The notes under the pieces: generated by a model
Told to the model about the DNA's origin: nothing
Seen by the model: the letters and a program-made list of their open reading frames with translations, nothing else
Databases searched by the model: none
Translations under genes and position numbers: made by a program
Shown: one piece after another, positions 2,497 to 36,471 of the stretch
How positions within the stretch are numbered: the first letter of the stretch is position 1
How the letters are laid out: each line of letters opens with the position of its first letter
From: Antedon mediterranea
Lineage: Eukaryota; Animalia; Echinodermata
Length of the DNA: 64,000 nt
Assembly: GCF_964355755.1 (NCBI RefSeq)
Contig: NC_092676.1
Span: 1,989,788-2,053,787, forward strand
Reading direction: 5' to 3'

Positions 2497-3320
2497 TATT
2501 AAAGTCTAGAAAAACTATTGCACCTGGCTGATTGTTATTTTCTGTATATGACAATACATCTTCTACTAACCTAATATTCTCTCCTCCAAATCTCCCTTTG
2601 ACATAACCTTTCTGATCATATCCAATTATAGATCAAATTACAATTTGCATTCTATTGGAGAGAACATGAGCCATTACTACATCTACATTCATTAGTCTTA
2701 TAGGCCTCCAGTTTTCTAGTTTTTCTCTTTGTCCGCCTTAAAACAGTTGATTTATAATACCTAGTCTTTGTGAGCCGCCTAATCTTTTGCTAATATAGCA
2801 GTGATTCAAATCGTCACATAACATATCTTTAATATCAACCCAAAAATGTCTATAAAATTCAACACTCAAACCATCCGAACCTGGACTTTTGTTGAGTTTC
2901 ATTTTTTCTATAGCATTTGTAAGTTCTTCTACTGATATTAATCCTTCACATTTCACAGAGTTGTCATAAGAAAGTGTATTTATTTTAGTGTTTCTTACAT
3001 ACTTATTTATCCTACCCTGTGGAATTGTTTTACATGCATACAACTTTTCATAAAAGCTTACTTGTTCTTTTAATATTTCATCTTCATTTGATGTTTATTT
3101 TCCATTATTTTTTAATAGTTTTGTAATATGTTTCCTTTTTGGGTTTTTTTTTTCTAATCCTAGGAAAAATTTATAATTTTTTTCTCCTTTCTCAAACCAT
3201 TCAATCCTAGATCGAATTGTGGCGCCTTGCGCTTCTATTAGATATATATTTTCCAAGTCGTTTGATTTGCTTTTTAATGTGCTTTCTATCTTTATGTCAT
3301 ATGTATTGTCTAATTTAAAT
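2497..3320 (-). mobile_element. Degraded L1/Tx1-clade non-LTR retrotransposon ORF2 internal fragment
   Basis: ORFs 3095-3370 and 2738-3043 plus downstream frames give AQGATIRSRIEWFEKGEKN..FFLGLEK, EELTNAIEKMKLNKSPGSDGLSVEFY, ENWRPIRLMN, DQKGYVKGRFGGENIRLV and GAIVFLDF, typical of L1/Tx1 RT N-terminal motifs. It carries stops and frameshifts and is joined directly to the 3' end of receptor R1. Confidence 0.9.
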
Positions 3321-4613
3321 GTAAGTCTGTCTGTTCTCATTTCTTGCATTTTGTAACCTCTTCTTTTCAATCACAGTGTCAGAGCTGACATACAACTGCT
3401 CAGCTTGTTCTGCTGTTCTGTCATCAACTGAACAGTAAACCTCATTTTCTGCATTAATTTGCTGAACATCAGAAGTATCACCAACATTAATGGTATCATT
3501 ATTACTTTGATAGTGCACAACAGGTACAGGTGTGTTGTGATGTTGCTTCTTTTGTTGTTCATAATAACACACTACACATACCAGTAAAACTATCAATATA
3601 ATAATATTTGTTACCAGTATTATGGTTGTTGTATTAGGTTTCTGAGACTGTGTAGACATGTTGTCATTGGAGGTTTTGTCTTGATAGTTCCCTTGATATG
3701 TTGTCAGTCTGTGTGTTGGCAAGATGCCATCTTTGATTGTAAAAGCTATCTCATCAGATCTGTTCTGAACATCATTACTCACCAGACACTTAACAGTGTA
3801 GTCACCAGCTGGTAAATTAGTAAAGCATCTTTCATCAGTTTCATTGTAATACTGATACTGAGATTCCTCTCCATTCAAACTCCAATTATAAATTCTCTTG
3901 TCATCAGATCCACCTACTACATAGCACTTGAAGCAATTCTGGTTCACATCAACTTCAGGTGTTTCATATAACCTCTTAACCTCCACCATTAATTGAGGGT
4001 GAACCTGCAATATCAATGTGTAGCATCTAATAGTAATATGCATAGGATTTGTACGCTCTATTGAAACACAGTAGAAAAACATTCCCTGTCCAGAATGAAA
4101 ACCTTTTAAAGTCTGATTAACTCTAGTGTTGTCAGTATTTAGATTATGAAACTGTGTGATTTTGTGCTTTCCTTGGATCCATCCAATTGTGACATTGTAC
4201 TGGTTGGTTTCATATTTCTTGATCATGTCACATGAAATATTTACTTCTTGCCCTTCAATGATGTCTTTGATATCATCACAATAAAGTTTTACCAAGTTTG
4301 GTTTACGTTTACTCCATCTTACATCATCTGATGAGCGTTGCAAATACTGTAAATTATAATCATCTTGACATGCATATATTCCTTTTTGAGGCTCAAAAGA
4401 AATGAAAAGTGGACATTTTGTGGTGAATTCCTTTCCAATTAAACTAGTAACTGTGTCATTTTTACTTGATGGTGTAATCGTCACAAATGTCTTGAAGTCT
4501 GATTTGTAATAAAACATACTTTCAAATAGTACCAACTCTTTTGAAGTTCCATGTCTGAATATCAACAAGCAGGTCACCATTACAAAGATGATATTAAAGA
4601 ATTTCAAAGCCAT
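3315..4613 (-). CDS. Receptor R1: Ig-superfamily-like type-I membrane protein (432 aa); tail cut by the L1 fragment after 1 Tyr repeat
   Basis: Signal peptide MALKFFNIIFVMVTCLLIFRHG; Ig-like motifs VNISC..IGWIQG..FFYC and CFKC..YNWSL..GDYTVKC; TM IILVTNIIILIVLLVCVVCYY; tail EVYCSV plus LYVSSDTV; single uninterrupted ORF. Confidence 0.85.
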   Translation of the reverse strand: MALKFFNIIFVMVTCLLIFRHGTSKELVLFESMFYYKSDFKTFVTITPSSKNDTVTSLIGKEFTTKCPLFISFEPQKGIYACQDDYNLQYLQRSSDDVRWSKRKPNLVKLYCDDIKDIIEGQEVNISCDMIKKYETNQYNVTIGWIQGKHKITQFHNLNTDNTRVNQTLKGFHSGQGMFFYCVSIERTNPMHITIRCYTLILQVHPQLMVEVKRLYETPEVDVNQNCFKCYVVGGSDDKRIYNWSLNGEESQYQYYNETDERCFTNLPAGDYTVKCLVSNDVQNRSDEIAFTIKDGILPTHRLTTYQGNYQDKTSNDNMSTQSQKPNTTTIILVTNIIILIVLLVCVVCYYEQQKKQHHNTPVPVVHYQSNNDTINVGDTSDVQQINAENEVYCSVDDRTAEQAEQLYVSSDTVIEKKRLQNARNENRQTYI

Positions 4614-4619
4614 CTTTAA

Positions 4620-6756: not shown

Positions 6757-8247
6757 CTAATTTGGTGTTTCGTAATATTTATGCTCACCACTCTTTTTTC
6801 TTGCATTTTGTAACTTCTTGTTTTCCATCACAGTGTCAGAACTAACATAGTCAGTCTGTTCTGCTGTCTCTCCGTTCTCATTTCTTGCATTTTGTAACCT
6901 CTTGTTTTCAATCACAGTGTCAGAGCTAACATAATCAGTCTGTTCTGATGTCTCTCTGTTCTCTTTTCTTGCATTTTGTAACCTCTTCTTTTCAATCACA
7001 GTGTCTGAGCTAACATAGTCAGTCTGTTCTGCTGTCTGTCTGTTCTCATTTCTTGCATTTTGTAACCTCTTGTTTTCAATCACAGTGTCAGAGTTAACAT
7101 AGAACTGCTCAGCTTGTTCTGCTGTTTTGTCATCAACTGAACAGTAAACCTCGTCTCCTGCATTCATTTGCAGAACATCAGATGTATCATCGACACCAAT
7201 TATGTCATTGTTTCTTTGAAAGTGCACAACTGGTACAGGTGTGTTGTGATGTTTTCTCTTTTGTTGTTTATAATAACACACAACAAACACAAGTACAGCT
7301 ATCAATACGATGTTACTTGTTATCAGTATTATGGCTGAGGTTTTGTCTTGATAGTTCCCTTGATATGTTGTCATTCTGTCTGTTGGCAAGATGACATCTT
7401 TAATTGTGAATGTTAACTCATCAGATCTGTTCTGAACATCAGTACTCACCAGACACTTAACAGTGTAGTAACCAGCTGGTAAATTACTAAAGCATCTTTC
7501 ATCAGTTTTATTGTAATAATGATACTGAGATTCCTCTCCTCTCAAACTCCAGTTATAAATTGTTGTGTCGTGAGGTTTACCTTCTGCATAGCACTTGAAG
7601 CAATTCTGGTTCACATCGACTTCAGGTGTCTCATATAACCTTTTGACTTCTATCATTAATTTATGGTGAACAGTCAATGTCAATGTGTAGCAATTATTGA
7701 TATACCTAATTGAAGTACAGTAGACAAATATTCCCTCTCCAGAATGAAAACCTTCAAAAGTCTGAGTCACTGTAGTATTCTCAGTATCTGCATTATGATA
7801 CTGTGTAATGTGGCGCTTTCCTTGGATCCAACTTATTGTAACATTTGTTTTGATGTAATATTCGTTGATGATGTCACATGAAATGTTTACTTTTTCTCCT
7901 TCAATTATTGCTTTTATATTGTCACAATAAAGTTTTACATACCATGGTTGACTTATAAAACTTGTTACATTTGAAGAAGGAACCAAATAATATTGTAAAT
8001 CATCTTGACACATATGTATTCCATTTTTGGGATCAAAAGAAATGAATAGTTGGCAGTTGACATTTTTTCCAGTCAAATGAAAGGCTCTGTACTGTTTACT
8101 TGATGGTGTAATTGTCACTAGTTGCTTAGTGTATGATTTGTAATAAAACCTACTTTCAAATTGTACTAACTCCCTAGATGCTCCTCGTCTGAATATCAAT
8201 AACCATGTCACCATTACAAAGATGATATTAAGAAATTTCAAATTCAT
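6757..8247 (-). CDS. Receptor R2: intact Ig-like type-I membrane receptor (496 aa), 4 Tyr repeats, ends HKYYETPN
   Basis: Complete ORF with signal peptide, Ig-like domains, TM (AIILITSNIVLIAVLVFVVCYY), DEVYCSV, 4 x YV(N/S)SDTV repeats and a terminal YYETPN. Confidence 0.9.
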   Translation of the reverse strand: MNLKFLNIIFVMVTWLLIFRRGASRELVQFESRFYYKSYTKQLVTITPSSKQYRAFHLTGKNVNCQLFISFDPKNGIHMCQDDLQYYLVPSSNVTSFISQPWYVKLYCDNIKAIIEGEKVNISCDIINEYYIKTNVTISWIQGKRHITQYHNADTENTTVTQTFEGFHSGEGIFVYCTSIRYINNCYTLTLTVHHKLMIEVKRLYETPEVDVNQNCFKCYAEGKPHDTTIYNWSLRGEESQYHYYNKTDERCFSNLPAGYYTVKCLVSTDVQNRSDELTFTIKDVILPTDRMTTYQGNYQDKTSAIILITSNIVLIAVLVFVVCYYKQQKRKHHNTPVPVVHFQRNNDIIGVDDTSDVLQMNAGDEVYCSVDDKTAEQAEQFYVNSDTVIENKRLQNARNENRQTAEQTDYVSSDTVIEKKRLQNARKENRETSEQTDYVSSDTVIENKRLQNARNENGETAEQTDYVSSDTVMENKKLQNARKKSGEHKYYETPN

Positions 8248-9049: not shown

Positions 9050-9340
9050 TACATTTTCATCACGTTCTGCTCTATTTGCATAGTAAGCCTCCTCTATCAC
9101 ATTTGTCTGTAGAACATCAGATGAATTCTCACCCACACTTGCACCACTGTTTCTTTGCTAGTACACAGCAGGTTGTGGTGTTGTCACGTTTATTCTTACA
9201 TTACAGCTCCACTACCCAATTTGATGCTACAATTGTTAAAGACAGTGGAAGGTATTTTGAATTGTACAAGATGTCTTGAAGCTCCTCTATGTCTGAATAT
9301 CAACAAGCAGATCACAAATAGATTAAAGGATTTCATCATT
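9050..9340 (-). pseudogene. Internally deleted receptor remnant (signal peptide joined to cytoplasmic relic)
   Basis: The reverse strand reads MMKSFNLFVICLLIFRHRGASRHLVQF and then jumps to degenerate juxtamembrane/tail-like sequence. A homologous remnant lies at about 30110-30590. Confidence 0.65.
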
Positions 9341-10050: not shown

Positions 10051-12048
10051 TCAATCAGTGTCAGAGTTACCATAGTCAGTCTGTTCTGATGTCTCTCTGT
10101 TCTCATTGCTTGCATTTTGTAATCTCTTCTTTTCAATCACAGTGTCAGAGTTACCATAGTCAGTCTGTTCTGATGTCTCTCTGTTCTCATTTCTTGCATT
10201 TTGTAACCTCTTGTTTTCCATCACAGTGTCTGAGCTAACATAGTCAGTCTGTTCTGCTGTCTCTCTGTCCTCATTTCTTGCATTTTGTAACCTCTTCTTT
10301 TCAATTACAGTGTCTGAGCTAACATAATAGTCAGTCTGTTCTGCTGTCTCTCTGTTCTCATTTCTTGCATTTTGTAACCTCTTGTTTTCCATCACAGTGT
10401 CTGAGCTAACATAGTCAGTCTGTTCTGCTGTCTCTCTGTTCTCATTTCTTGCATTTTGTACCCTCTTCTTTTCAATCACAGTGTCAGAGCTAACATAGTC
10501 AGTCTGTTCTGATGTGTCTCTGTTCTCAATTCTTGCATTTTGTAACACCTTCTTTTCAATCACAGTGTCCGAGGTAACATAGTCAGTCTGTTCTGGTGTC
10601 TCTATGTCCTCATTTCTTGCATTTTGTAATCTCTTGTTTTCAATCACAGTGTCTGAGTTACCATAGTCAGTCTGTTCTGTTGTCTCTCTGTTCTCATTTC
10701 TTGCATTTTGTAGCCTCTTCTTTTCAATCAAAGTGTCAGAGCTAATATAGTCAGTCTGTTCTGCTGTCTCTCTGTTCTCATTTCTTGTGTTTTGTACAGT
10801 CTTTTCTTCAATCACAGTGTCAGAGCTAACATAAAATGCATTTTCAGCTTCTTCTGCTATATTATCATCAATCGTAAAGTAAATTTCTTCCTCTGCAATG
10901 GTTTGTGGTGTGTAAGAAATGTCATGCACACTAATTGTGTCATTGTTTCTTTGGTAGTTTACAACAGGTACAGGTGTGTTGTGATGTTTCTTATTCTGTT
11001 GTTCATAACAACACACAACACAAACTAGTAAAACTATTAGTATGGTGTTACTTGTTACCAGTATTATGGTTATTTTATTGGGCTTCTGATTTGTATTTGT
11101 AGCTATTGGCATGTTATCATTGGAGGTTATGTATTGGTTGTTGCCTTGGAGTGTTGTCATTCTCTCTGTTGCCATGACATCTTGAATTGTGAATGCTATC
11201 TCATCAGATCTGTTTTGAACATCAGTACTCACCAGACACTTAACAGTGTAGTTACCAGCTGGTAAATTACTAAAGCATCTTTCATCAGTTTCATTGTAAT
11301 ATTGATTCTTGAATTCCTCTCCTAGGCCTTTCAAACTCCAATTATAAATTGTTTGGTCACCAGATCCACCTTCTGCATAGCACTTGAAGCAATTCTTGTT
11401 CACATCAACTTCAGGTGTTGTATATAACCTCTTAACCTCTACCTTTAATTTAGGGTGAACCAGCAATATCAATGTGTAGCACCTTATGCTCCTATTGGGT
11501 GAGTAATAATATAAAATACAGTGGACAAATATTCCTTCTCCAGAATAAAAACCTTTAAAAGTCAGATTTATTGTAATGTCTGAATCTTCACTATGAAACT
11601 GTGTAATGTTGTGTTTTCCTTGGATCCAACCAATTGTTACTTCATATTGGTTAATGTTATATTTTCTGATGTCACATGAAATGTTTACTTCTTCTCCTTC
11701 AATGATGTCTTTTATATCTTCACAATCAGCTCTTACAAAGTCTGGTTGAGCTCTTCTCCATTGTATATCATCCGATGAAGGAAGCAAATATTGTAAATTA
11801 TCATCATCGTAACATGTGTATATTCCTTTTTGTTGTTGACCAAAGGAAATAAGAAGTGGGCATTTAATTGTGACGTCTCTTCCGTACAAATTATCCAAGT
11901 CCTGTAAACTTGATGGTGTAATTATCACAGGTAGCTCAGTGTATGATAGATAATAAAACTCTCTTTGAAATTGTACAAGATATCTTGAAGCTCCATGTCT
12001 GAATATCAATAAACAAGTCACCAAAAGATTAAGCAATTTTAAATTCAT
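10051..12048 (-). CDS. Receptor R3: intact Ig-like type-I membrane receptor (665 aa), 9 full plus 1 partial Tyr repeats
   Basis: Complete ORF; TM ITIILVTSNTILIVLLVCVVCCY; EEEIYFTI; repeat variants TDYVSS, TDYGNS, TDYISS, TDYVTS and TDYYVSS. Confidence 0.9.
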   Translation of the reverse strand: MNLKLLNLLVTCLLIFRHGASRYLVQFQREFYYLSYTELPVIITPSSLQDLDNLYGRDVTIKCPLLISFGQQQKGIYTCYDDDNLQYLLPSSDDIQWRRAQPDFVRADCEDIKDIIEGEEVNISCDIRKYNINQYEVTIGWIQGKHNITQFHSEDSDITINLTFKGFYSGEGIFVHCILYYYSPNRSIRCYTLILLVHPKLKVEVKRLYTTPEVDVNKNCFKCYAEGGSGDQTIYNWSLKGLGEEFKNQYYNETDERCFSNLPAGNYTVKCLVSTDVQNRSDEIAFTIQDVMATERMTTLQGNNQYITSNDNMPIATNTNQKPNKITIILVTSNTILIVLLVCVVCCYEQQNKKHHNTPVPVVNYQRNNDTISVHDISYTPQTIAEEEIYFTIDDNIAEEAENAFYVSSDTVIEEKTVQNTRNENRETAEQTDYISSDTLIEKKRLQNARNENRETTEQTDYGNSDTVIENKRLQNARNEDIETPEQTDYVTSDTVIEKKVLQNARIENRDTSEQTDYVSSDTVIEKKRVQNARNENRETAEQTDYVSSDTVMENKRLQNARNENRETAEQTDYYVSSDTVIEKKRLQNARNEDRETAEQTDYVSSDTVMENKRLQNARNENRETSEQTDYGNSDTVIEKKRLQNASNENRETSEQTDYGNSDTD

Positions 12049-13892: not shown

Positions 13893-15272
13893 TTATTTAT
13901 GACATCCTCTATCATCATTTCTTGCATTTTGTAATCTCTTCTTTTCAATCACAGTGTCAGAGCTAACATACAACTGTTCAGCTCGTTCTGCTGTCTCTCT
14001 GTTATCAATTCTTGCATTTTGTAACCTCTTCTTTTCAATCACAGTGTCAGAGCTAACATAGAACTGTTCAGCTTGTTCTGCTGTCTGTCTGTTCTCATTT
14101 CTTGCATTTTGTAACTTCTTGTTTTCAATCACAATGTCCGAGTTAACATACAACTGTTCAGCTTGTTCTGCTGTTTTGTCATCAACTGAACAGGGAACCT
14201 CGTCTTCTTCATTTATTTGCAGAACATCAGATGTGTTTCCCGCACTAATTGTGTCAGCGCTTCTTTGAAAGTGCACAACTGGTGCTGGTGTGTTGTGATG
14301 TTTTCTCTTTTGTTGTTCATAAAAACACACAACACACACAAGTACAGCTATCCATATGATGTTACTTGTTACCAGTAGTATTTTTATTTTAGGCTTCTTG
14401 GTATTAGTATCTTGAATTGTGAATGCTATCTCATTAGATCTGTTCTGAACATCAGTACTCACCAGACACTTCACAGTGTAGTCACCAGCTGGTAAATTAC
14501 TAAAGCATCTTTCATCTGTCTCTAGCTGGTCATCATTCTCTGTCAATTCTTCCTTATTCAAACTCCAATTATACATTTTCTTGTCATCAGATCCACCTTC
14601 TGCATAGCACTTAAAGCAATGCTGGTTCACATCAATTTGAGGTGTTTCAGAGTATAACCTTTTAACATCCACCTTTAATTGAAGGTGAACTGTCAATATC
14701 AATGTGTAGCAGTAAATATTTCTATTTTTTAAAATGCAGTAGAAAAATACCCCTTCTCCAGAATGAAAACCTTTTAAAGTCTGATTAATTGTAACAGTGT
14801 CAGTATTTGTATGAAGAGTCTGTGTAATGTTGTGCTTTCTTTGGATCCAACCAATTGTCACTTTATAATTGATGTTACGATTTCTGTTCATGTTACATGA
14901 AATATTTAATTCCTCTCCTTTAATGATGTCTTTCATATTGTCACAGTAAAGTTTTACAAGTTTTGGTTGAACTGCAAACCATACCTGTACATTGGACGTC
15001 GGATTCAAATATTGTAATCTATCCTTTTGACATGTGTATATTCCTGTTTTGTTACCAAAAGAAATAAAAAGTGAACATTTAACTGCAACATCTTTTCCAC
15101 CCACATGAACTATGTTCTGTTTACTTGACGATATAATTCTCACATTTATTTTGGAGTTTGATGAGTAATAAAATCTTCTTTCAAATTTCACCAACTTTTT
15201 TGACGCTCCATGTCTGAATATCAACAACCAGGTCACAAGTACAATAATGATATTAAGGAATTTCAAATTCAT
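13893..15272 (-). CDS. Receptor R4: intact Ig-like type-I membrane receptor (459 aa), short stalk, 3 Tyr repeats with 30-aa spacing
   Basis: Complete ORF; short stalk IQDTNTKKPK; proximal Tyr replaced (DEVPCSV); 90-bp repeat period (cttgcatttt at 13921, 14011, 14101). Confidence 0.9.
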   Translation of the reverse strand: MNLKFLNIIIVLVTWLLIFRHGASKKLVKFERRFYYSSNSKINVRIISSSKQNIVHVGGKDVAVKCSLFISFGNKTGIYTCQKDRLQYLNPTSNVQVWFAVQPKLVKLYCDNMKDIIKGEELNISCNMNRNRNINYKVTIGWIQRKHNITQTLHTNTDTVTINQTLKGFHSGEGVFFYCILKNRNIYCYTLILTVHLQLKVDVKRLYSETPQIDVNQHCFKCYAEGGSDDKKMYNWSLNKEELTENDDQLETDERCFSNLPAGDYTVKCLVSTDVQNRSNEIAFTIQDTNTKKPKIKILLVTSNIIWIAVLVCVVCFYEQQKRKHHNTPAPVVHFQRSADTISAGNTSDVLQINEEDEVPCSVDDKTAEQAEQLYVNSDIVIENKKLQNARNENRQTAEQAEQFYVSSDTVIEKKRLQNARIDNRETAERAEQLYVSSDTVIEKKRLQNARNDDRGCHK

Positions 15273-16247
15273 CTTTAGAACTTCTCTGTCTTGATGCAGT
15301 TTATAATAACCAACTCCAAGTCCAAATGTGGTAAGAGACTGAATGTGTTTGTAATAGTGTATACCAACAAGGAAGAATATACTTCAAGGGTTTGTTAAAG
15401 GTTTTTAACAGGAAGTCTTTAAAGGAAAGTTTATGCCAAGAAGATAGAATATGATTTTTGCTACTATAAAATTTGTGCATTTTGTGAAATGAAAAATTTA
15501 CAGCTTTACAACAGCTTTACCTAATAATACTAGATGTGTCATCCCACAAACACAAAATAATCCGTCTTTTAGCAACCACCTACTTTAATTTGATTATCAA
15601 TATGCCTACTGATTGTTTGTGTTTTAATAATAGTACATTCGGTAATTTAAGGAAGTACGTTATTGGATATTATAAGCTCTCCCATTACAATATTTAAAAC
15701 TAAATTGTTTAGATTGAATGCTATACGGATATTTTAACGTGTTTTTTTTTCATTATGTGAACTTGTTGGTTTCCTTCTTGTTATATGATCTTGATTTAAT
15801 CATGTTGTTTGTAGATTTAAACAATTGAAAAAAAAAAACAAAATACAAGTTTTCAATATTATTCTGTTGCTAAATTTTATTTATTTGTACAAGACTATTT
15901 GCAAGCTTTTTACATTTGAAGCATAAGTAACATTTAAGTTTTTTTACATCACAGCATGGACATATAACATTATGTATTTTCATCATGTTCTGCTGTGTCA
16001 TTAATTTCATAGTAAACCTCCTCTTCCGCATTTGTCTGTAGAACATCACATGAATTCTCACCCACATTGGCACCACTGTTTCTTTGATAGTACACAGCAG
16101 GTTCCCCTCTGAATGAGAACGTATTTATTCTATCTATTTTTCCTGTGGAATGTTACAATCACAGTGTCAGAGCTAACATAGTCTCTCTGTTCTCATTTCT
16201 TTAATCCTCTTCTTTTCAATGACAGTGTCTAACATAGGTTAATTTAA

Positions 16248-17402
16248 TTATTCTGCTGTATGATCATCAATTGAACAGTAAATCTCATTCTTTTCAATGG
16301 TTTGCGAAACATTCAAAGTGTCACCAACACTAATTGTGTCATTATTACTTTGAAAGTGCACAACAGGTACAGGTGTGTTGCGATAGTTTCTCTTCTGTTG
16401 TTCATAACAACACACAACAAACACAAGTAAAACTATCAGTAGGCCTATGATAGTGCTTGTTACAAATATTATGGTTATTTGATTAGTGTTCTTGCATTTT
16501 GTCGGCATGCCAAATTTGATATCTTGAAATGTTGTTATTCTTTCGGTTACATCTTTGATTGTGAATGCTAACTCATCAGATCTGTTCTGAACATCAGTAC
16601 TCACCAGACACTTGACAGTGTAGTTACCAGCTTTTAAATTACTAAAGCATCTTTCATCACGTTCATTGTAATTATATTGAGTCATGATCCCCTCTCCTCT
16701 TAGTCCCCAATTATAAATTGTTTTAATACCAGATCCAACTTCTGCATAGCACTTAAAGCAATTCCGGTTCACATCAACTTTAGGTGTTTCATATAACCTT
16801 TGAACCTCTACCATTAATTGAGAGTGAACCATCAATATCAATGTGTAGCAGTAAATACTTATATTGTTTAAAATACAGTAGAAAAATATCCCTTCTCCAG
16901 AATGAAAACCTTTTAAAGTCTGATTAATTGCAACAGTGTCAGTATCTGTACGAAGAGTCCGTGTAATGTTGTATTTTCCTTGGATCCAACCAATTATCAC
17001 TTTATATCGGATGGTATAATTTCTGTTCATTTTACATGAAATATTTAATTCCTCTCCTTTAATGATGTCTTTCATATTGTCACAATAAAGTTTTACACGT
17101 TTTGGTTGAACTGCAAACCATGTTACCTGTACATTGGACGTCGGAACCAAATACTGTAATCTATCCTTTTGACATGTGTATATTCCTGTTTGGTGACCAA
17201 AAGAAATTAGAAGTGGACATTTAACTGCAACATTTTTTCCAACTATTTTCCGTTTACTTGATGTCATTTTCACAGTTATTTTGGAGTTTGATGAGTAATT
17301 AAAACTTCTTTCAAATTTTACCAACTCTTTTGAAGCTCCATGTCTGAATATCAACAACCAGGTCACAAGTACAAAGATGATATTAAGGAATTTCAAATTC
17401 AT
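16248..17402 (-). CDS. Receptor R5: Ig-like type-I membrane receptor (384 aa) with short tail and no in-frame repeats
   Basis: Complete ORF; N-terminal half close to R4; TM IIFVTSTIIGLLIVLLVFVVCCY; NEIYCSI then stop; scrambled repeat relics at about 16155-16235 after the stop. Confidence 0.85.
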   Translation of the reverse strand: MNLKFLNIIFVLVTWLLIFRHGASKELVKFERSFNYSSNSKITVKMTSSKRKIVGKNVAVKCPLLISFGHQTGIYTCQKDRLQYLVPTSNVQVTWFAVQPKRVKLYCDNMKDIIKGEELNISCKMNRNYTIRYKVIIGWIQGKYNITRTLRTDTDTVAINQTLKGFHSGEGIFFYCILNNISIYCYTLILMVHSQLMVEVQRLYETPKVDVNRNCFKCYAEVGSGIKTIYNWGLRGEGIMTQYNYNERDERCFSNLKAGNYTVKCLVSTDVQNRSDELAFTIKDVTERITTFQDIKFGMPTKCKNTNQITIIFVTSTIIGLLIVLLVFVVCCYEQQKRNYRNTPVPVVHFQSNNDTISVGDTLNVSQTIEKNEIYCSIDDHTAE

Positions 17403-21374: not shown

Positions 21375-22740
21375 TTAAAATGGATAGCAAACCATATTTT
21401 TAAAAAAAACCTGAATTATTTCAAACAGACAGCACATTAGTTCAAACAGATAGCACAATAGATAGCTCAATCAAATGGATGATATAACTGTACTGTGCAT
21501 TCTATACGGATTATCGGGTAGCACGTTCTTTCAAATGGATAGCACATTTTTTCAAATGGATACTGTAGCACATTCTTTCAAATGGATAGCACATTATTTC
21601 AAATGGATAGCACATTAGGTAGCACAATCAAATGGATATAGTACTGTACATTATTCTATGATTATCGGGTAGCACATTCTTTCAAATGGATAGCACATTA
21701 GGCCTATTTCAAATGGATAGCACATTCTTTCAAATGGATAGCACATTATTTCAAATGGATAGCACATTATTTCAAATGGATAGCACATTATTTCAAATGG
21801 ATAGCACATTGGGTAGCACAATCAAATAGATATAGTACTGTACATTATTCTATAAGGATTATCGGGTAGCACATTATTTCAAATGGATAGCACATTATGT
21901 AGCACAATCAAATGGATATAGTACTGTACATTATTCTATACGGATTATCGGGTAGCACAGTCTTTCAAATGGATAGCACATTAGGTAGCACAGTCAAATG
22001 GATATAGTACTGTACATTATTCTATACGGATTATCGGGTAGCACATTCTTTCAAATGGATAGAAAATTATTTCAAATGGATAGCACATTCTTTCAAATGG
22101 ATAGCACATTATTTCAAATGGATAGCACATTATTTCAAATGGATAGCACATTAGGTAGCACAATCAAATGGATGTAATTGTACTGTACATTATTCTATAC
22201 GGATTATCGGGTAGCACATTCTTTCAAATAGCACATTATTTCAAATGGATAGCACATTATTTCAAATGGATAGCACATTGGGTAGCACAATCAAATGGAT
22301 ATAGTACTGTACATTATTCTATAAGGATTATCGGGTAGCACATTATTTCAAATGGATAGCACATTAGGTAGCACAATCAAATGGATATAATTGTACTGTA
22401 CATTATTCTATAGCCTACGGATTATCGGGTAGCACATTCTTTCAAATGGATAGCACATTCTTTCAAATGGATAGCACATTGGGTAGCACAATTAAATGGA
22501 TCATAGTACTGTACTGTACATTATTCTATACGGATTATCGGGTAGCACATTCTTTCAAATGGATAGCACATTATTTCAAATGGATAGCACATTAGGTAGC
22601 ACAATCAAATGGATATAATTGTACTGTACATTATTCTATACGGATTATCGGGTAGCACATTCTTTCAAATGGATAGCAAATTATTTCAAATGGATAGCAT
22701 GGATTTGGGTAGCACAATCAAATTGAGCACATTGGGTAAC
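21375..22740. repeat. Composite tandem repeat (about 20-bp TCAAATGGATAGCACATTAT/CTT units interleaved with a longer GTACTGTACATTATTCTATACGGATTATCGGGTAGCAC unit)
   Basis: Directly visible; lies inside the TIR element. Confidence 0.9.
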
Positions 22741-22779
22741 GCATTGCATCAAATGGGAGCCTACTGTACAGTTATTCTA

Positions 22780-22955
22780 TTGAATTGAATTGAAATATAT
22801 ATTTATACTGGGTAACCTCTTCAGTCAAAGACTGGTCTCCCAGGGGGCTCAGTTGGTGATCAGTGGCTGTGATGTACTAATACACCGGGGTAACCCCCCA
22901 CTCGTCTCGAAAGATGTACTAGGTTCTTTAAAGTACACACGAGCTAGATGTGTAT
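22780..22955 (-). mobile_element. SINE 3' fragment (same family as 63195-63480)
   Basis: Shares ctcttcagtcaaagactg..gatcagtggctgtgatgta..ctcgtctcgaaagat and a (GAATT)n tail with the copy at 63195-63480. Confidence 0.75.
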
Positions 22956-24619
22956 TCTATTAACGGGTGTAGCACATTAAAATTGAGAGGATAAGATGGA
23001 CATCATAATTTATTATTAAGGGGAAAAACAGCAAATCCTTACTGAGGGGACACTCCTATAAAGCGGACATTAAGGGGACGGGGAACATTTAAGCTCAGTG
23101 CCAATGTTCACTCAATATATTTTCCATCACAAAATAACAAAAAAGACGAAATATTTATATCCATTTATCGTTATTAAATAAAAATGGATATCATGATAAT
23201 TATGATACTTTGTTTGTCTTGAAAGTTTTCATTGGTGAAACGTTGCCTGCTACATTTTGAATTTCCGAGTCCAGATCAGTATTGGTATTGGTTTTCCGTG
23301 ATCTATTCTAACTAATGAAACAATTTTTAGAAAATGATATATCTGATAGATATCATCTAAGTGATGTTTTACATATAAGTTATAACGTTTAACTTTTCAT
23401 TCTCCATACATTCAATTCTTTTAATATAGTTCTTGTATAACACCATATCAAGTAGTAGTAGAAATTGTTGAATTGAAGGGTTTTCTTATTATTCAGTCAA
23501 TTCAGTGTTTCTATACAGAAAAGAGTAGTCAGTGGCCTTAACATCAATTAATTGTATAATTTGCACCCAAGGTCGAATAGCAAGAAACTCAGGTCCAGTT
23601 ACATTGGTGTTCATTGGTCAATAGGAAATGAACAGCACACTTATGGGTGGTGACAAAGTTTAGTTATTGATAAGTTGTCCTTGGGAAAAACACATTAGTT
23701 GGGTTGACCATGGGCTGACAGAGTTAACGACTTCGTAACGCTATCCGGGGCTCCTGCGCCTAATGGTAATAAAACCTACTTTCAAATTGTACCAACTGTC
23801 GTGATGCTACTCCATGTCTGAATATCAACATCCAGGTCACCATTGGGCCTACAAAGATGATATTAAGGAATTTCAAAGCCATCTTTAACCTATTGATACA
23901 GTTTATAAATAACCAACTAAATAACCAGACGTCGTCAGAGACTGAGTTTGTAATAGTGTACAATACTAAGAAGGAAGAATATACTTAGGGAATTTTACAG
24001 GAAGTCTTTAAAGGAAAGTTTATGTCAAGAAGATACAGTAGAATATGATTTTTGCTGTTAATATTCAAACTGTAAAATGTGTGCATTTTGTGAAATGAAA
24101 AGTTAAACAAAAACAGCTTACTGGTATTAACTGTACCTACAGTTAATACTAGAAATGTGTAATCCCACCACCAGAAATACAAAATAACCCTGTCGTTTAG
24201 CAACCACCTACTTTAACTTGATTGTCAAGATGGTTCATAAAATGTTTGTGTTATATTATTTATAGTACATTAAGTACAGTAATTTAAGGAAGTACATTAT
24301 AGAGATATTATAGGTTTCTCATTACAATATTTAAAACTAAATTGTTTAGATTGAATCCTGTACGGAAGTTTAAAATTTTTTTTTTTTTGCATTATGTGAA
24401 CTTGTTGCTTTCCTTCTTGTTATATAATCTTGATTTAATCATGTTGTTTGTATATTTAAACAATTGAAAAAAAAAAATACAGGTTTTCAATATTCTGTTG
24501 CTAAATTATATTTATTTGTACAAGACAATTTGCAGGCTTTATACATTTGAAGCATAAAGTAACATTTGTGTTTTTTACATCACAGCATGGACATATAACA
24601 TCTATGTTAATTTGTCGTT

Positions 24620-24960
24620 AATTGCATAGTAAACCTCCTCTTCTGCATTTGTCTGTAGAACATCAGATGAATTCTCACCCACACTTGCATCCCTGTTTCT
24701 TTGATAGTACACAGCAGGTTGTGATGTGTGTTTGTGCAATCATCAGTATAATATTACTTGTTAGTATTATTTGTTACTTAATTAGTATCCATGGTTGGCG
24801 TGGTATAATTGATATCTTGAGTTGTTGTCTTCATTCTTTCTGTTTTGCATTGTACCGTACCTTCAATTGTGCCTTGGAGTGTTGTCATCCTCTTTGTTGG
24901 CATGATGACATCTTTAATTTTGAATGCTGTCTCGTCATGAGGTGGTTTCTCGAAAGATTG
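24620..24960 (-). pseudogene. Receptor remnant (stalk/TM/tail relic)
   Basis: The reverse strand gives DETAFKIKDVIMPTKRMTTLQG.., then TM-like and tail-like degenerate sequence. Confidence 0.6.
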
Positions 24961-25029
24961 TAAAATCAAAAACGGTACTGGGTATCACCAACTAGCATAG
25001 CTAACATAAAAATGTTCATTTTATTCATC

Positions 25030-26223
25030 ATTCATCTGTGTGATTAACAATTGAACAGTAAATCTCATTCTTTTCAACAGTTTGCGAAACATTCAAAGTG
25101 TCACCAACACTGATTGTGTCATTGAATCATCTTTTTATACATTATGATTTACTGTATTCTATCTCTAAAAAAAAATAAAAAAATAATTATTTATAAAACA
25201 TCAGAAATTATAATGTTTTTTACTCAAATATGAATGAAAGAAATAAATGTTTATTTGAATTGAATTGAATTGTTTCTTTGATAATGCACAACTGGTACAG
25301 GTGTGTTGTGATGTTTCTACTTCTGTTGTTCATAATAACACACAACAAACTTGAGTAAAACTATCAGTATGATGTTACTTGTTACTAGTATTATGATTAT
25401 TTTATTAGTTTTTATGTTCACCATTCTGTCTGTTTGCATTGTAAACCCTATCTCATCCGATCTGTTCTGAACATCAGTACTCACCAGACACTTAACAGTG
25501 TAGATTGAAGCAATTCTGGTTCACATCAACTTTAGGTGTATCATACAACCTTTGAACCTCTACCTTTATTTGAGGCTGAACTGTTAACATCAATGTGTAG
25601 CACCAAGTGTCTAAACAATTGTTAATTTCAATTGATAAACAGTAGAAAAATATACCTTCTCCGGAATAAAAACCTTTAATAGTTTGAGTATAGCTAATAT
25701 TTCTTTCAGTATTTGAACTGTGGAACTCTGTAATGTTGTACACTCCTTGGATCCAACCACTTGTGACATTATATTTGATAAGATTCTTTCTGATAATACA
25801 TGTAATGTTTACTTCATCTCCTTCAATGATGTTTTTCAAACTTCCACAAAAGACTTTTTCATCATATTTTTCTGATTTAACTTCAGATGAAAGAAAAACA
25901 TATTGTAAATGGTCATCATCTTCACATGTATAGATTCCTTGTTTTTGTTTATCAAAAGATATAAATAATGGACATTTTATAATGAATTGTTGTGTCAAGT
26001 AATTGTTGAACATACGCTGTCCGTTCTCGCCTTTGTTAAAGTATTTACCACCCACATTAATCTGGAACTCCTTACTTGATGTTATGATTGTCACAGGTTG
26101 TTTAGAATCTGATGAGTAAAAGAAATATTAATGAGATCCATCAGGTGATTTTTAAGTTCCGTGTCTGAACATTAGCAAGCAGGTCACTATTCCAACGATG
26201 ATGTTAAGGAATTTCAAAGTCAT
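25030..26223 (-). pseudogene. Receptor R7: frameshifted, partly deleted pseudogene
   Basis: ATG at 26223; ORF 25492-26094 keeps KCPLFISF..GIYTC..VNITC..GWIQG..FFYC..CYTL. The membrane-proximal domain is deleted between NCF and YTVKC, and the tail is interrupted by an insert ending in (GAATT)n at about 25125-25272. Confidence 0.85.
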
Positions 26224-27741: not shown

Positions 27742-29382
27742 CTAATTTGGTGTTTCGTAATATTTATGCTCACCACTCTTTTTTCTTGCATTTTGTAACC
27801 TCTTGTTTTCCATCACAGTGTCTGAGCTAACATAGTCAGTCTGTTCTGCTGTCTCTCTGTCCTCATTTCTTGCATTTTGTAACCTCTTGTTTTCCATCAC
27901 AGCGTCAGAGCTAACATAGTCAGTCTGTTCTGGTGTCTCTCTGTCCTCATTTCTTGCATTTTGTAATCTCTTCTTTTCAATTACAGTGTCTGAGCTAACA
28001 TAGTCAGTCTGTTCTGCTGTCTCTCTGTTCTCATTTCTTGCGTTTTGTAGCCTCTTCTTTTCAATCACAGCATCAGAGCTAACATAGTCTGTCTGTTCTG
28101 ATGTCTCTCTGTTCTCATTTCTTGCATTTTGTAACCTCTTGTTTTCAATCACAGTGTCAGAGTTAACATACAACTTTTCAGCTTGTTCTGCTGTTTTGTC
28201 ATCAACTGAACAGTAAACCTCATTTTCTGCATTAATTTGCTGAACATCAGAAGTAATACCAACACCAATTGTGTCAATGTTTCTTTGAAAGTGCACAACT
28301 GGTACAGGTGTCTTTTGCTGTTTCCTCTTTTGGTATTCATAACAGCACACTACACACACAAGTAAAACTATCAATATAATAATATTTGTTACCAATATTA
28401 TGGTTGTTGTATTAGGTCTCCGAGACTGTGTAGGCATGTCGTCATTGGAGGTTTTGTCTTGATAGTTGGCTTGATATGTTGTCAGTCTGTCTGTTGAAAA
28501 GATGCTATCTTTGAGTGTAAATGCTATCTCATCAGATTTGTTCTGAACATCAGTACTCACCAGACACTTAACAGTGTAGTTACCAGCTGGTAAATTACTA
28601 AAGCATCTTTCATCAGTTTCATTGTAATACTGATACTGGAAGTCCTCTCCTTTCAGCATCCAATTATAAATTGTTTTGTCACCAGATCCACCTTCTGCAT
28701 AGCACTTGAAGCAATTCTGGTTCACATCAACTTCAGGTTTTTCATATAATCTTTTAACTTTTATTTTCAATTGAGTGTGAACTGTTAATATCAATGTGTG
28801 GCAGTAGATACTCACATAATGGGTATACTTGAATGACATGCATACAAAAAATAATCCTTCTCCAGAATGAAAACCTTTAAAAGTCTGATTAAATGTAGTG
28901 TTCTTGGTATCTGTTTGATGAAACTGTGTAATGTTATGCTTTCCTTGGATCCAACCAATAGTGACATCATTTTGGATGTAGCCATATTTCTTGATCATGT
29001 TGCATGAAATGTTTACTTCCTCTCCTTCAATGGCGTCTTTCATATCTTCACAATAAAGTGTTATGTATGATTGAGATAGGTCCCATGTTCTATGTACCCT
29101 CAATGAACGTCGCAAATATTGTAAATTATAATCATCTTGACATGTGTATATTCCTGTTTGGTTACCAAAAGAAATGAAAAGTGGACATTTAATTCTGAAA
29201 TCCTTTCCACTTATACGAAATACATCATATTTACTTGATGATTTGATTGTCACAGGTTGCTTAGTGTATGATTGGTAATAAAACCTTCTGTCAAATTGTA
29301 CAAACTCTCTTGAAGCTCCATGTCTAATTATCAACAACTAGGTCACAAGTACAAAGATGATATTAAGGAATTTCAAAGCCAT
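27742..29382 (-). pseudogene. Receptor R8: otherwise intact gene (5 Tyr repeats, ends HKYYETPN) with a single TGG>TAG stop in the signal peptide
   Basis: ATG at 29382 reads MALKFLNIIFVLVT then TAG (29340-29338) where R4 and R5 have TGG. The rest (ORF 27742-29337) is fully open. Confidence 0.85.
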
Positions 29383-30109: not shown

Positions 30110-30590
30110 TTTCATCATGTTCTGCTGTGTCATTAATTGTAAACCTCCTCTTCCGCATTTGCCTGTAGAACATCAGATGAATTCTCAACCACACTTGCAC
30201 CACTGTTTCTTTGATAGTACACAGCAGGTTGTGGTGTTGTCATGTTTCTTTTTACATTACAGTTCCACTACCCAATTTGATGCTACAATTGTTAAAGACA
30301 GTGGAAGGTATTTTGAGTCACATTTAAACTCGCTATCTTCTTCTTCTTCTTCTTCTTCTTCGTATTAGGAGCCAACTTCATATGTGAAGACACTGCTCCT
30401 TCAACTCTGTTTTGCTAGCTCTACTGTATTTGGTTGTGTATTATTCTATTTAGTTATTCTTTTATTATTATTATTTTTTTTTTTTTTTTTTTTTTTTTGG
30501 GGAAATTGTACAAGATGTCTTTAAGCTCCTACATGTCTGAATATCAACAAACACAGATCACCAACAGATTAAAGGATTTCAAAGTCATCT
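30110..30590 (-). pseudogene. Internally deleted receptor remnant (paralogous to 9050-9340) with a small insertion containing (TCT)n and poly-T
   Basis: Shared blocks gtagaacatcagatgaattctc..cacttgcaccactg and aaattgtacaagatgtct..tgtctgaatatcaacaa. Confidence 0.6.
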
Positions 30591-31159: not shown

Positions 31160-33094
31160 AATATAGCCTGTTCTGCTGTGTCTCAATTCTTGCATTTTGT
31201 AACCTCTTCTTTTCAATTACAGTGTCAGAGTTAACATAGTCAGTCTGTTCTCATTTCTTGCATCTTGTTTTCAATGACAGTGTCTACTGTATGCTAACAT
31301 AGGGATGTTTGGTTTATTCTGCATGATTATCAATTGAACAGTAAAGCTCATTTTTTTCAATGGTTTGCAAAACATTAGAATTGTCACCAACATTAATTGT
31401 ATCAATGCCTCTTTGATAATGCATAGCTGGTACAGCTGTGTTGCGATGTTTCCTCTTTTGTTGTTCATAACAACACACAACAAACACAAGTAAAACTATC
31501 AGTAGGCCTATGATAGTACTTGTTACAAATGTTATGGTCATTTGATTAGTTTTCTTGCTTTTTGTCGGCATGCCAAATTTGATATCTTGAAATGTTGTTA
31601 GTCTTTCTGTTACCATAACATCTTTAATTCTATCTCATCAGATCTGTTCTGAACATCAGTACTCACCAGACACTTAAAGACCCCTTCCCTGCAATTTTGG
31701 ACGTTTTTTGGAAAATAATACATATATATCACTTTAAAAACATTAAACCATGTCATTCCTTGTCTTAAATGTACGTTTTATGGTAAATTATGATAAAAAG
31801 TGAGAAACAATGCACTACCTAAGTAGCTCGCGGCGATCGACCTCTCGTGGACGGTCTTAGGCCTAGCCTAGCTAGGCTTAGTTTTGTAGGCCTAGCTGGT
31901 AAACATCGGTAACGTACGAACATCGTACGCGAGCTATATACCTAGCCTGACGTTGTATAGTTGCTGCATTAATTGTCTTTCTATTTTTGCCAGACTCCGT
32001 TACAAATTGGGGAAAACCCGGTATTTTCGCTGAAAAGTTAGGAGTCTTCCATTTGTTTTGGCCTCACGATCGATCGAAAAGTGGGCGAATTATAGGTGAA
32101 AAACAAAAATATCAATCCGCGCGCAATGCATTCTGGGATTTTTAGCGGGCCGCTATAATTATTAGAATCGGATTATTTTTCACATTTTTAACCGTTTAAA
32201 GACGAAAAAAGTTATCGCAATAGGACCATATAGTATTATTTTTACATTAAATATAGTTTGTGATCTTAAATTAGATCTAAAAAACGTAGGGAATGGGGCT
32301 TTAACAGTGTAGTTACCAGCTGGTAAATTACTAAAGCATCTTTCATCAGTTTCATTGTAATGTAATACTGATACTAAGATTCCTCTCCTTTCAAACTCCA
32401 ATTATAAATGGTTCTGTCACCGGATCCACCTTCTACATAGCACTTGAAGCAATTCTGGTTCACATCAACTTTAGGTGTATCATATAACCTTTTAACCTCT
32501 ACCTTTAATTTAGGGTGAACCAGCAATATCAATGTGTAGCACCTTATGCTCCTATTAGTTAAGTAATAATATGAAATACAGTAGATAAATATTCCTTCGC
32601 CAGAATTAAAACCTTTAAAAGTCAAATGTAATATCAGTATCTGCACTATGATACTGTGTAATGTTGTGTTTTCGTTGGATCCAACTAATTGTGATGTCAT
32701 ATGGTTGATGTTATATTTTCTGATGTCACATGAAATGTTTACTTCTTCTCCTTCAATGATGTCTTTTATATCTTCACAATCAGCTCTTACAAAGTCTGGT
32801 TGAGCTCTTCTCCATTGTACATCATCCGATGAAGGAAGCAAATATTGTAAATTATCATCATCGTAACATGTGTATATTCCTTTTTGTGGTTGACCAAAGG
32901 AAATAAGAAGTGGGCATTTAATTGTGACGTCTCTTCCATACAAATTATCAAAATCTTGATAACTTGATAGTGTAATTATCACAGGAAGATTAGTGTATGA
33001 TAGATAATAAAACTCTCCTTGAAATTGTTGTGAAGCTCTATATCTTGATATCATCAATAGACATGTCACCATGGTTTAGCAATTTTAAACTCAT
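31160..33094 (-). pseudogene. Receptor R9: frameshifted pseudogene interrupted by a TTAA-site element
   Basis: ORF pieces 32374-33072 (ectodomain nearly identical to R3) and 31314-31616 (stalk/TM/tail like R5); degenerate repeats at about 31160-31300. Confidence 0.85.
31678..32300. mobile_element. Kolobok-like non-autonomous DNA transposon
   Basis: TTAA is duplicated (31674-77 and 32301-04) where paralogs have a single cacTTAAcag. Imperfect TIRs AGACCCCTTCCCTGC / GTAGGGAATGGGGCT begin with AG, which fits Kolobok rather than piggyBac (CCC). Confidence 0.8.
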
Positions 33095-33950: not shown

Positions 33951-34059
33951 AGAAAGAGTGCTATAGTACATTTCTTTGGTATCATGTGATCCACAATCTT
34001 CCAATCAAATGCCAAGAATCTAAAATAATCTATGATAATTTAATTAGAATAGAAATATG

Positions 34060-34835
34060 CTAATTCAATTCAATTTCTTTTTATTTCGGAAATATCATCC
34101 ATATTAATAAACGTATAAATAGAAAAAAAGAGAAATAAAAAATCGTAAACTTTAAACTTAAGTATATAGACTGCTTCTCCATCTACAATACATTTTGGAG
34201 TTATGGAGCATATTTTTGCAAACACAAGCAACAAGGATGTTACCACTATTCAACATACGTTGCATAAAACCATAGGTAGATTTTCGCATGTACTCATTAA
34301 AGGAAGGGACACCATGTTCAATAAACATTGCACTGGCACTGCTACTTCTAGAGACATTAAGTATACGGCGCAGAGCATTATTGTAACATACATTAAGAGA
34401 TCTAATATTCTTCATACGATAGTTACACCAAAGGGCTGCACAATACATATTAATACAGTAAGATCTAAAGAGACAACATTTAACATTGGTAGAGCATTTC
34501 ATAAATTTGCGATTGAGTGAGTTGCTTCTAATACATAAAGATCTGTACTGACTTTGAATGTCAGCCTCATCACTGCAATCACACATAAGAATATGACAAA
34601 CCTTTCTCAACATAAGCAAGTTTTTTACCAAAAAGTTTAGTAATAGAATTACCTTCAAGTTTGCATGTACGAGGACAGAAACACATACAAAAAGATTTCT
34701 TATCATTAAATAAAACATCATTCTCTTGCGAAAACTCTTCACAAACATGTACCAATTGATGGAGACCAGACAATCATCCGCATAACTAAGATGATTCAAG
34801 ATAATGTTTCTACATTGGCAACCCTGGCACAAACC
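34060..34835 (-). mobile_element. Non-LTR retrotransposon 3' fragment (RT YADD to C-terminus; clade uncertain, RTE-X or L2-like)
   Basis: ILNHLSYADD, LFRSYC..MYCAALW, YNNALRRIL..SASAMF; (GAATT)n tail at about 34062. Confidence 0.85.
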
Positions 34836-35307
34836 ACTTATTACTAATATAAAAACATCAAACAATATCAGATTTATGCAGAACATAAAACACATTCATT
34901 ACAAATTACATGAATTACCTACATTCTGTGAAAAAGTTAGCACGCATACAGTATTCTTCATGTTAACCATTTCAGATTTATTTATTTTCCAGTATATCAC
35001 TTGCTGTTTCCTATATGGCTATACATTTATATATTATTACATATTTTTGTTTTCTAATTGGTGTTATTAATAATTCTCTCTGAATGAGAACTTACTGATA
35101 TTTTATTCATATCTATTTTTCCTCTGGAATGTTACCTATTAGCCTATTATTTTGGTTATTTAATTCTGTACAAATGTCTAATCCTTTACATTGCTTGGTA
35201 TATAAGGGTGTTGGTTTCTGTTGTGTTAGATGATATTGATTTGATCATGTTGTAGATTCAATTCGCAAGCAAACAAACAAACCAATCTGGCGTTTCATAA
35301 TATATGC

Positions 35308-36471
35308 TCACCACCCACTCTTTTTTCTTGCATTTTGTAACCTCTTCTTTTCAATCACAGTGTCCGAACTAACATACAACTTTTCTGCTGTTCTGTCATC
35401 AACTGAACAGTGAACCTCATCTTCTGCATTCATTTGCAGAACATCATTTGTGTCTCCCACACTAATTGTGTCAATGTTTCTTTGAAAGTGCACAGCTGGT
35501 GTGTTGGGATGTTTCCTTTTTTGTTGTTCATAATAACACACAACACACACAAGTACAGCTATCCATATGATGTTACTTGTTACCATTAGTATTATTATTT
35601 TAGACTTCTTGTTTTTAGTATCTTGAATTGTGAATGTTATCTCATCAGATCTGTTCTGAACATCAGTACTCACCAGACACTTCACAGTGTAGTCACCAGC
35701 TGGTAAATTACCAAAGCATCTTTCATCAGTTTCATTGTAATTCTTGAATTCCTCACCATTCAAACTCCAATTAATTGTTTTATCAACAGATCTACCTTCT
35801 GCATAACATTTGAAGCAATTCTGGTTAACATCACCTTCAGGTGTTTCATACAACATCTTTACCTCTACAATTAATTGAGGGTAAACTGGCAATATCAATG
35901 TGTAACAATAAATATCTTTATCGGTATCCATTATTAAAATACAGTGAAAAAATATGCCTTCTCCAGAATGAAAACCTTTTAATAAAGTCTGATAAATTGC
36001 AATGTCAGTATCTAGATGATGAAACTGTGTAATGTTGTGTTGTCCTTGGATCCAACCAATTGTCACTTCATATTGGATTTTGTCATTTTTCCTTATGTCA
36101 CATGACATGTGTACTCCCTCTCCTTCAATGATGTCTTTCTTAATATTGTCACAGTAAAGGTTTACATGCGATGGTTGATATCTGCTCTGTATAACATCTG
36201 ATGAAGGTACCACATAGTGTGAATTATCATCATCTTGACATGTGTATATTCCATGTTGGTTACCAAAAGAAATGAAAAGTGGACATTTCATTTTGAAATC
36301 TTTTCCCCCCACACTATATGTGTAATTTTTACTTGATTGTGTCATTATCACAGATTGTCGTGTTTGCAGGTAGTAAAACCTGCTGTCAAATTGTACCAAC
36401 TCTTTTGATGCTCCATGTTTGAGTAACAACAACCAGGTCACAATTATAAACGTGATATTAAGAAGTTGCAT
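35308..36471 (-). CDS. Receptor R10: intact Ig-like type-I membrane receptor (about 387 aa), short stalk, 1 Tyr repeat, ends KKSGW
   Basis: The start at 36471 (MQLLNITFIIVTWLLLLKHG) is chosen by homology to paralogs; an in-frame ATG also exists at 36501. Ig-like domains, TM and DEVHCSV are present. Confidence 0.88.
   Translation of the reverse strand: MQLLNITFIIVTWLLLLKHGASKELVQFDSRFYYLQTRQSVIMTQSSKNYTYSVGGKDFKMKCPLFISFGNQHGIYTCQDDDNSHYVVPSSDVIQSRYQPSHVNLYCDNIKKDIIEGEGVHMSCDIRKNDKIQYEVTIGWIQGQHNITQFHHLDTDIAIYQTLLKGFHSGEGIFFHCILIMDTDKDIYCYTLILPVYPQLIVEVKMLYETPEGDVNQNCFKCYAEGRSVDKTINWSLNGEEFKNYNETDERCFGNLPAGDYTVKCLVSTDVQNRSDEITFTIQDTKNKKSKIIILMVTSNIIWIAVLVCVVCYYEQQKRKHPNTPAVHFQRNIDTISVGDTNDVLQMNAEDEVHCSVDDRTAEKLYVSSDTVIEKKRLQNARKKSGW

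Follow-up and report, generated by a model that had tools for sequence, protein, structure and literature searches.

What is the tandem gene family that lies between positions 3315 and 36471 of this 64,000-nucleotide stretch of the feather star Antedon mediterranea (hereafter the window), and what could its products do? Six-frame translation and self-searches of the window found 10 paralogs, R1 to R10, all on the minus strand, with six open and four broken. Four relics were also found, at approximately 9.1-9.3, 16.0, 24.7, and 30.1-30.6 kb. A first-pass annotation had already reported ten same-strand paralogs, six open and four disabled, plus remnants, and its bounds coincide exactly with the R1 stop codon (3315) and the R10 ATG (36471); all of this was confirmed. 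The cluster fits the kind known as diversifying recognition-receptor clusters, as its tandem copies undergo birth and death and positive selection acts on the distal part of the ectodomain. On balance, we think that the family encodes germline-encoded recognition receptors of immune type, directed at fast-changing non-self ligands and signaling via tail tyrosines. An immune-type role is the best reading because the pattern matches that of recognition-receptor families.

Each copy has the same layout: a signal peptide, a three-part ectodomain (D0, D1, and D2), one membrane helix, and a tail. The open copies run from ATG to stop in a single frame: R1 (3315-4613, 432 amino acids), R2 (6757-8247, 496), R3 (10051-12048, 665), R4 (13893-15272, 459), R5 (16248-17402, 384), and R10 (35308-36471, 387). 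The coding regions of the family have no introns, and the adjoining dynein gene is intron-rich. The N-terminus is hydrophobic, with a Kyte-Doolittle peak above 1.6 in five of the six open copies. The ectodomain of about 260-270 residues has ten cysteines and six to eight N-glycosylation sequons, and a variable stalk joins it to a membrane helix that ends in an edge of the V-C-V-V-C type. No lysine, arginine, aspartate, or glutamate was present in the 19-residue hydrophobic peaks of eight copies and, thus, these helices hold no charged membrane residue. The shared ectodomain motifs described previously recur once per copy; for example, [GS]W[IV]Q[GR] was found 10 times in the cluster and nowhere else in the six frames. 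Ectodomain identity between the eight aligned copies is 59-78%, which is far above chance.

How the remaining copies were lost differs from one to the next. R6 was disabled by a 3.4-kb element inserted 3' of the signal peptide and by an in-frame stop. Its 5' part, with the ATG and signal peptide, is at 23767-23882, and its severed main part is at 18279-20375. The element itself (20376-23766) has terminal inverted repeats of approximately 33 bases and a satellite at 21415-22723, and contains no long open reading frame. R7 (25031-26223) carries stops, a deletion, and frameshifts. R8 (27742-29382) has a single TAG inside the signal peptide, the remainder being intact. R9 (31160-33094) was broken by frameshifts and an insert of about 630 bp (approximately 31675-32304), a short inverted-repeat element of very high copy number. 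The relics, like the genes, are on the minus strand. One is a signal-peptide piece fused to a tail piece with the ectodomain deleted (9050-9339), one is a tail only (15979-16101), one holds stalk and tail (24611-24940), and one has lost its ectodomain (30130-30588). At 16023 and 24640, two of the relics carry the acidic di-tyrosine motifs EEVYYEI and EEVYYAI, pointing to a possible short-tailed subfamily that was lost. In six of the copies, the duplicated segment included about 0.6-1 kb of upstream DNA, and no second gene family was recognized between the copies among the long open reading frames of the window. Public sequencing runs contain contigs that are nearly identical to the locus. These are not independent support because the best match may be the source sample.

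What fold do these ectodomains have? AlphaFold performed poorly on the whole ectodomain, with a predicted local distance difference test (pLDDT) score of 46.5, and fold searches with this model returned generic sandwiches only, for D1. Modeling D1-D2 with 12 sequences gave a pLDDT of 74, with D1 at about 85 and D2 at about 62. D1 (4000-4304 in R1) is predicted to be a seven-strand immunoglobulin (Ig)-like sandwich with strands A, A', B, C, C', E, F, and G. Two invariant cysteines, 54 residues apart, fall on predicted strands B and F, a near-invariant tryptophan falls on C, and a second cysteine pair falls on predicted strands A and G. D2 (3729-3998 in R1) is a less certain sandwich, predicted to resemble fibronectin type III (FN3) or PKD domains, with a Pfam Y_Y_Y match at the cut-off score. 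The structural neighbors were FN3 (Z 9.5, root-mean-square deviation 4.2, 164 residues aligned), SIRP-alpha (2wng; Z 9.5, root-mean-square deviation 7.4, 166 aligned), transglutaminase barrels (Z 9.1), and chains of antigen-binding fragments. Z scores were 8.4-9.5 overall; FN3, SIRP-alpha, and transglutaminase were tied at 9.1-9.5, and the matches did not separate the Ig superfamily from FN3. Foldseek placed transglutaminases at the top, and CD22 and NEGR1 had the highest identity (16-17%). Pfam Ig matches fell below the cut-off (E 0.01-0.1), and the D-x-G-x-Y-x-C motif is shifted in both D1 and D2. A homodimer prediction scored 0.00 with the alignment not used, and this is not evidence either way.

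These models support an Ig-like fold for D1 and D2, with strict membership of the Ig superfamily likely for D1 only. The first-pass annotation had called the whole ectodomain Ig-like and proposed checking for a non-Ig fold. Its call stands as a prediction for D1 and D2 but not for the GIYxC segment, D0 (4299-4538 in R1, about 80 residues). D0 is the most divergent part of the protein and matches no Pfam family. Its two cysteines are only 15 residues apart and its model is of low confidence (pLDDT below 50), which makes it at most a candidate Ig domain.

Is the ectodomain constrained along its whole length? Ratios of nonsynonymous to synonymous change (dN/dS, NG86) were 0.37 in the signal peptide, 0.88 in D0, 0.77 in D1, 0.45 in D2, 0.50 in the membrane helix, and 0.46 in the proximal tail, as well as 1.03 in the poorly aligned stalk. 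Mean amino-acid identity was 53% in D0, 61% in D1, and 78% in D2. Recombination has made the copies mosaics (PHI p=0.001), and their nearest paralogs change along the gene: R2 pairs with R6 and R4 with R5 in D1, and R4, R6, and R10 group in the membrane/tail region. Since recombination can mimic positive selection, each domain was refitted on its own tree. Comparison of models M1a and M2a gave twice the log-likelihood difference (2dL) as 26.9 in D1 (p 1e-6), with about 11% of sites at a dN/dS (omega) of about 5.7. The corresponding values were 0 in D2 and below 1 in the membrane helix and tail. For D1, 2dL was 27.6 once columns near indels were masked, 23.8 with the six open genes only, and 16.2 with a double-nucleotide term, and the result held with F61 frequencies. 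Neutral simulations with recombination reached the observed D1 value in 0 of 55 and 0 of 57 runs. By these measures, D1 is under positive selection, and D2 and the membrane/proximal tail region are under purifying selection. Purifying selection throughout the ectodomain, which would have counted against the first-pass annotation's reading, is therefore absent.

Variation and indels within D1 cluster at the N-terminal, BC, C'E, and FG loops, which, by the predicted order of the strands, form the membrane-distal end. Entropy, calculated with gaps as an additional state, averaged 1.67 bits in the distal loops versus 0.47 in the proximal ones (permutation p 5e-5), and the distal loops hold 12 of the 15 indel columns. 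In the predicted structure, the variable sites in the distal BC, C'E, and FG loops would adjoin the divergent D0 segment.

The tails vary in a different way. A tail unit consists of 28-30 residues with one tyrosine and is encoded by an 84-90-bp tandem repeat. The number of units is 1 in R1, 4 in R2, 9 in R3 (full units), 3 in R4 (of 90 bp), 0 in R5, 13 in R6, 5 in R8, and 1 in R10. The 84-bp repeat is at 6797-7102 in R2 (3.6 copies) and at 10056-10833 in R3 (9.2 copies), and the R6 repeat is at 18295-19358. All 36 counted units are in frame where the tail is open, and those behind a stop, in R5 and R9, have decayed; the R5 stop lies 5' of its repeat. Tail length is thus set by an in-frame 84-bp repeat. 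Upstream of the units, a proximal motif, E-[VI]-Y-x-x-[VI], is found in R1, R2, R3, R5, and R8. R2 and R8 end in YYETP, which a 4-base insertion puts out of frame in R6 and R10. Cores of the YxxV/I type are present in five of eight tails, and YxN is present in the repeats of four of eight. The R3 sequence EEEIYFTI is similar to the hemITAM pattern reported for the FcoR proteins of Botryllus, with I replacing L (PMC12582321). The previous description of a tyrosine-bearing tail in every copy needs refinement, as the tails differ widely: R5 has no repeat unit, and R4, R6, and R10 lack the membrane-proximal tyrosine.

How widely is the family distributed? A profile search of 1.84 billion representatives, in which homologs within 50% clusters may stay hidden, gave 10 matches, of which three are genuine homologs. 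XP_071957072.1 is an uncharacterized A. mediterranea protein that resembles R4 and R5, with up to 95% identity in 40-residue windows. XP_071950092.1, also uncharacterized and from the same species, is encoded on another contig; it has 33-40% identity and a different tail, with terminal tyrosines and without the 84-bp repeat. The third is an unnamed 133-residue fragment. The other seven matches were rejected as generic: bacterial repeat proteins aligned at NLPAGDYTV, and Ig proteins of the CD22-like or hemicentin-like type aligned over short stretches. Word-indexed searches found 0 of 7894 candidates with R2, 0 of 6099 with the family profile against longer proteins, and 1 of 1214 at near length, which was XP_071957072.1 only. 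These searches are insensitive to distant relatives since they missed XP_071950092.1. A sequence search of the PDB gave a chance match only, and no orthology to a characterized conserved adhesion protein was found when this was checked. A literature search, which left most subscription journals and supplements uncovered, returned no description of the family. The data support a lineage-restricted, receptor-like family, as judged from sequence, and the earlier claim of a lineage-specific birth-and-death family agrees with these results.

XP_071957072.1 departs from the family sequence at a strong splice-donor-like site in the D2 F strand (3780-3790 in R1), which is present in seven of the eight aligned copies. 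Its end could be either a soluble isoform or a gene-prediction artifact. The idea that this site gives rise to a secreted isoform was set aside, as its conservation is not special: 27 of 41 invariant D2 columns have invariant codons too. A search of the window revealed no downstream exon to match it.

Does the family belong to a known system? A close likeness is to the Alr proteins of Hydractinia, which are clustered and lineage-restricted, with atypical Ig folds, a single membrane pass, an FN3-like proximal domain, pseudogenes, domain-level mosaicism, and tyrosine tails (10.1101/2022.03.04.482883). Each Alr domain has its own exon, the domains are V-set or I-set, and several tails have a canonical immunoreceptor tyrosine-based activation motif (ITAM) or inhibitory motif (ITIM) (10.1101/2022.03.04.482883). 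In contrast, a single exon holds the feather-star coding region, the predicted fold of D1 is a seven-strand C2/FN3-type sandwich, and the tails have neither motif in canonical form. The profile search detected no sequence similarity to Alr. The fester/FcoR genes of Botryllus are likewise expanded Ig-fold receptors with intergenic recombination, and their tails have noncanonical YxxI/L/V cores, core-2 motifs in pairs spaced by 29-33 residues, and motifs of the hemITAM-like type, which resemble the feather-star proximal motif and the 28-30-residue tyrosine spacing (PMC12582321). They differ in having Sushi domains, alternative splicing, and FF-gene pairing (PMC12582321), whereas in the feather-star family the number of tyrosines is set by a tandem repeat within the coding region, which reaches 13 units and has serine as the +3 residue. 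The family is not a member of Alr, since it lacks an exon per domain, or of FcoR, since Pfam gave no Sushi match in the family copies and no paired gene family was recognized.

Within the phylum, sea-urchin toll-like receptors provide a precedent, being described as mostly single-exon genes with many pseudogenes and positive selection confined to the ectodomain (PMC3367398). They differ in their leucine-rich-repeat ectodomain, TIR tail, and hundreds of genes, with no Ig fold or tyrosine repeats (PMC3367398). The Sp185/333 (SpTransformer) genes are also echinoderm immune genes in tight clusters; they have internal repeats and undergo gene conversion, duplication, and deletion, but they are a different protein family with GA/GAT microsatellite flanks and are reported to be without pseudogenes (PMC5103432). 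The vertebrate SIRP, CEACAM, KIR/LILR, and NITR/DICP families share birth-and-death Ig clusters, variable distal domains, and both long and short tails. They are multi-exon and have canonical ITIMs or charged membrane residues, whereas the feather-star helices are uncharged. The feather-star family is not of the ITIM/ITAM immunoreceptor type because it has no canonical motif and no charged membrane residue.

Several other features surround the cluster. An axonemal dynein heavy chain gene with many introns occupies approximately 39000-64000 on the plus strand; its best PDB match is human DNAH5, and it contains a near-perfect 32-bp minisatellite of 64 copies (44642-46691). Between this divergent gene and the R10 ATG, at 37382-37395, is the window's only perfect palindromic copy of what we take to be an RFX-type X-box, likely the dynein promoter. 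Upstream of the family genes are motifs that we take to be ETS-like, an RFX half-site, and Runx-like. The 9-base ETS-like site occurs seven times in the window (4758, 15408, 17541, 23997, 29529, 30688, and 36597), always 100-145 bases upstream of a family ATG. These motifs were not used as evidence because they are shared by descent. A decayed LINE-1-like ORF2 fragment (2741-3320, minus strand; weak match, E 0.018) abuts R1 and cuts its tail short. A 245-codon open stretch at 34161-34895 on the minus strand, with no Pfam match and a related piece at 54866-55186, looks like a retrotransposon remnant.

If the family does consist of recognition receptors, a conserved stem of D2, membrane helix, and proximal tail would carry a variable tip formed by D0 and the D1 loops, and this tip would be the binding site for a changing non-self ligand. 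Through unequal crossover and gene conversion, new tips could be combined with different tails, tyrosine units gained or lost, and copies eliminated. Receptor clustering would lead a kinase to phosphorylate tyrosines in acidic context, namely those of E-[VI]-Y-x-x-[VI], the repeated DYV/YxN, and the terminal YYETP, and the phosphorylated tyrosines would recruit SH2 adaptors. Repeat number could tune signal strength, with output graded by tail length and short-tailed copies serving as weak or decoy members. In its most specific version, this model describes a repertoire of single-exon immunoreceptors confined to crinoids, with gene conversion shuffling tip loops that resemble complementarity-determining regions and the coding repeat setting 0-13 phosphotyrosine docking sites; we regard this version as possible but doubtful.

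A number of observations weigh against the recognition-receptor reading. Canonical ITIMs, ITAMs, and immunoreceptor tyrosine-based switch motifs were found in 0 of 8 tails. The proximal tyrosine was lost in R4, R6, and R10, and tail-repeat variants are near neutral (10 synonymous versus 26 nonsynonymous). The selection and mosaic tests used our own code on six to eight paralogs, with R7 and R9 left out. D0 alone was borderline and not significant (p 0.02-0.5), the D1 2dL fell to 8-14 without two edge sites, values above 5.99 arose in 5 of 55 and 7 of 57 runs of the mosaic null, which was thus somewhat inflated, and the distal loops were delimited once the variation had been seen. Nor does positive selection say which ligand is bound, and it is seen in gamete proteins as well. 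A feature search of the ESM Atlas gave Ig/C2-set clusters at 0.91-0.93, with a recognition value of 2001 that is below the 2300 mark and is therefore weak evidence. Finally, public protein sets hold one close model only, XP_071957072.1, which is truncated and without a membrane helix; this could reflect low or restricted expression.

What else could the cluster be? A surface protein for adhesion, sensation, or development might have been amplified by unstable repeats and now be drifting, with most copies dispensable. Eight of the 14 recognizable copies are broken or relics, tail-repeat variation is near neutral, D0 has an omega near 1, and the one more distant paralog, XP_071950092.1, is single and without the repeat, all of which would suit this explanation. 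Nevertheless, an omega above 1 in D1 alongside about 0.4 in D2 is not drift, and the counted tail units have stayed in frame in the open tails while decaying behind stops; we consider it unlikely. Sperm or egg recognition proteins, diversified through sexual conflict or species recognition, would account for intron-free genes, rapid ectodomain evolution, and a narrow taxonomic range, and R10 is head-to-head with the DNAH5-like gene across the presumed X-box. That box, however, lies next to a single copy, ten mosaic paralogs with variable tyrosine tails would suit a repertoire better than a one-to-one pair, and no such echinoderm family turned up in the literature search, which leaves a gamete role rather unlikely.

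Feather stars are solitary animals that do not fuse, and for this reason allorecognition was the weaker half of the earlier claim. Markers that bind like to like, as Hydractinia Alr1/Alr2 do, are accordingly improbable here. Another sequencing run from the same organism gives a weak hint of polymorphism: it matches pieces of R1 and R2 poorly (17 differences in 287; 39 plus 14 gaps in about 413) and intergenic pieces well (1-5 differences in about 300), but the poorly matching contigs may be other paralogs rather than alleles. The one run guessed to be RNA covers intergenic DNA and was therefore treated as DNA. The layout is Alr-like in that Ig-like domains and an FN3-like domain near the membrane precede a membrane helix and a tyrosine tail, and the genes form a cluster with pseudogenes (10.1101/2022.03.04.482883), yet no Alr protein was among the 10 profile matches, a result that very distant homology could also give. 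A captured viral or mobile-element gene, an Ig-fold mimic spread in tandem, would explain intron-free coding regions amid an intron-rich neighborhood. It is very improbable: no relative of the family was found among 65 viral or 197 metagenome contig candidates, BFVD fold matches were generic sandwiches with 7-18% identity, and no viral gene was recognized in the long open reading frames of the window.

The recognition-receptor reading thus remains the one that we prefer. The family is real and apparently undescribed, although its general pattern is familiar, and automated annotation seems to have largely missed it, with one truncated close model. With single-exon coding regions, the genes should be easy to amplify, type across individuals, and express. 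Should recognition prove to be their role, they would be an echinoderm case of the variable Ig-fold clusters that have arisen repeatedly and independently in Hydractinia, Botryllus, and vertebrates, with signaling tuned another way, through a tyrosine count set by a coding repeat. If the more specific model is true, the crinoid repertoire would have arrived independently at paired strong and weak receptors, without exon shuffling or canonical ITIMs and ITAMs, and it would offer an entry point to crinoid immunity, which has been little studied.

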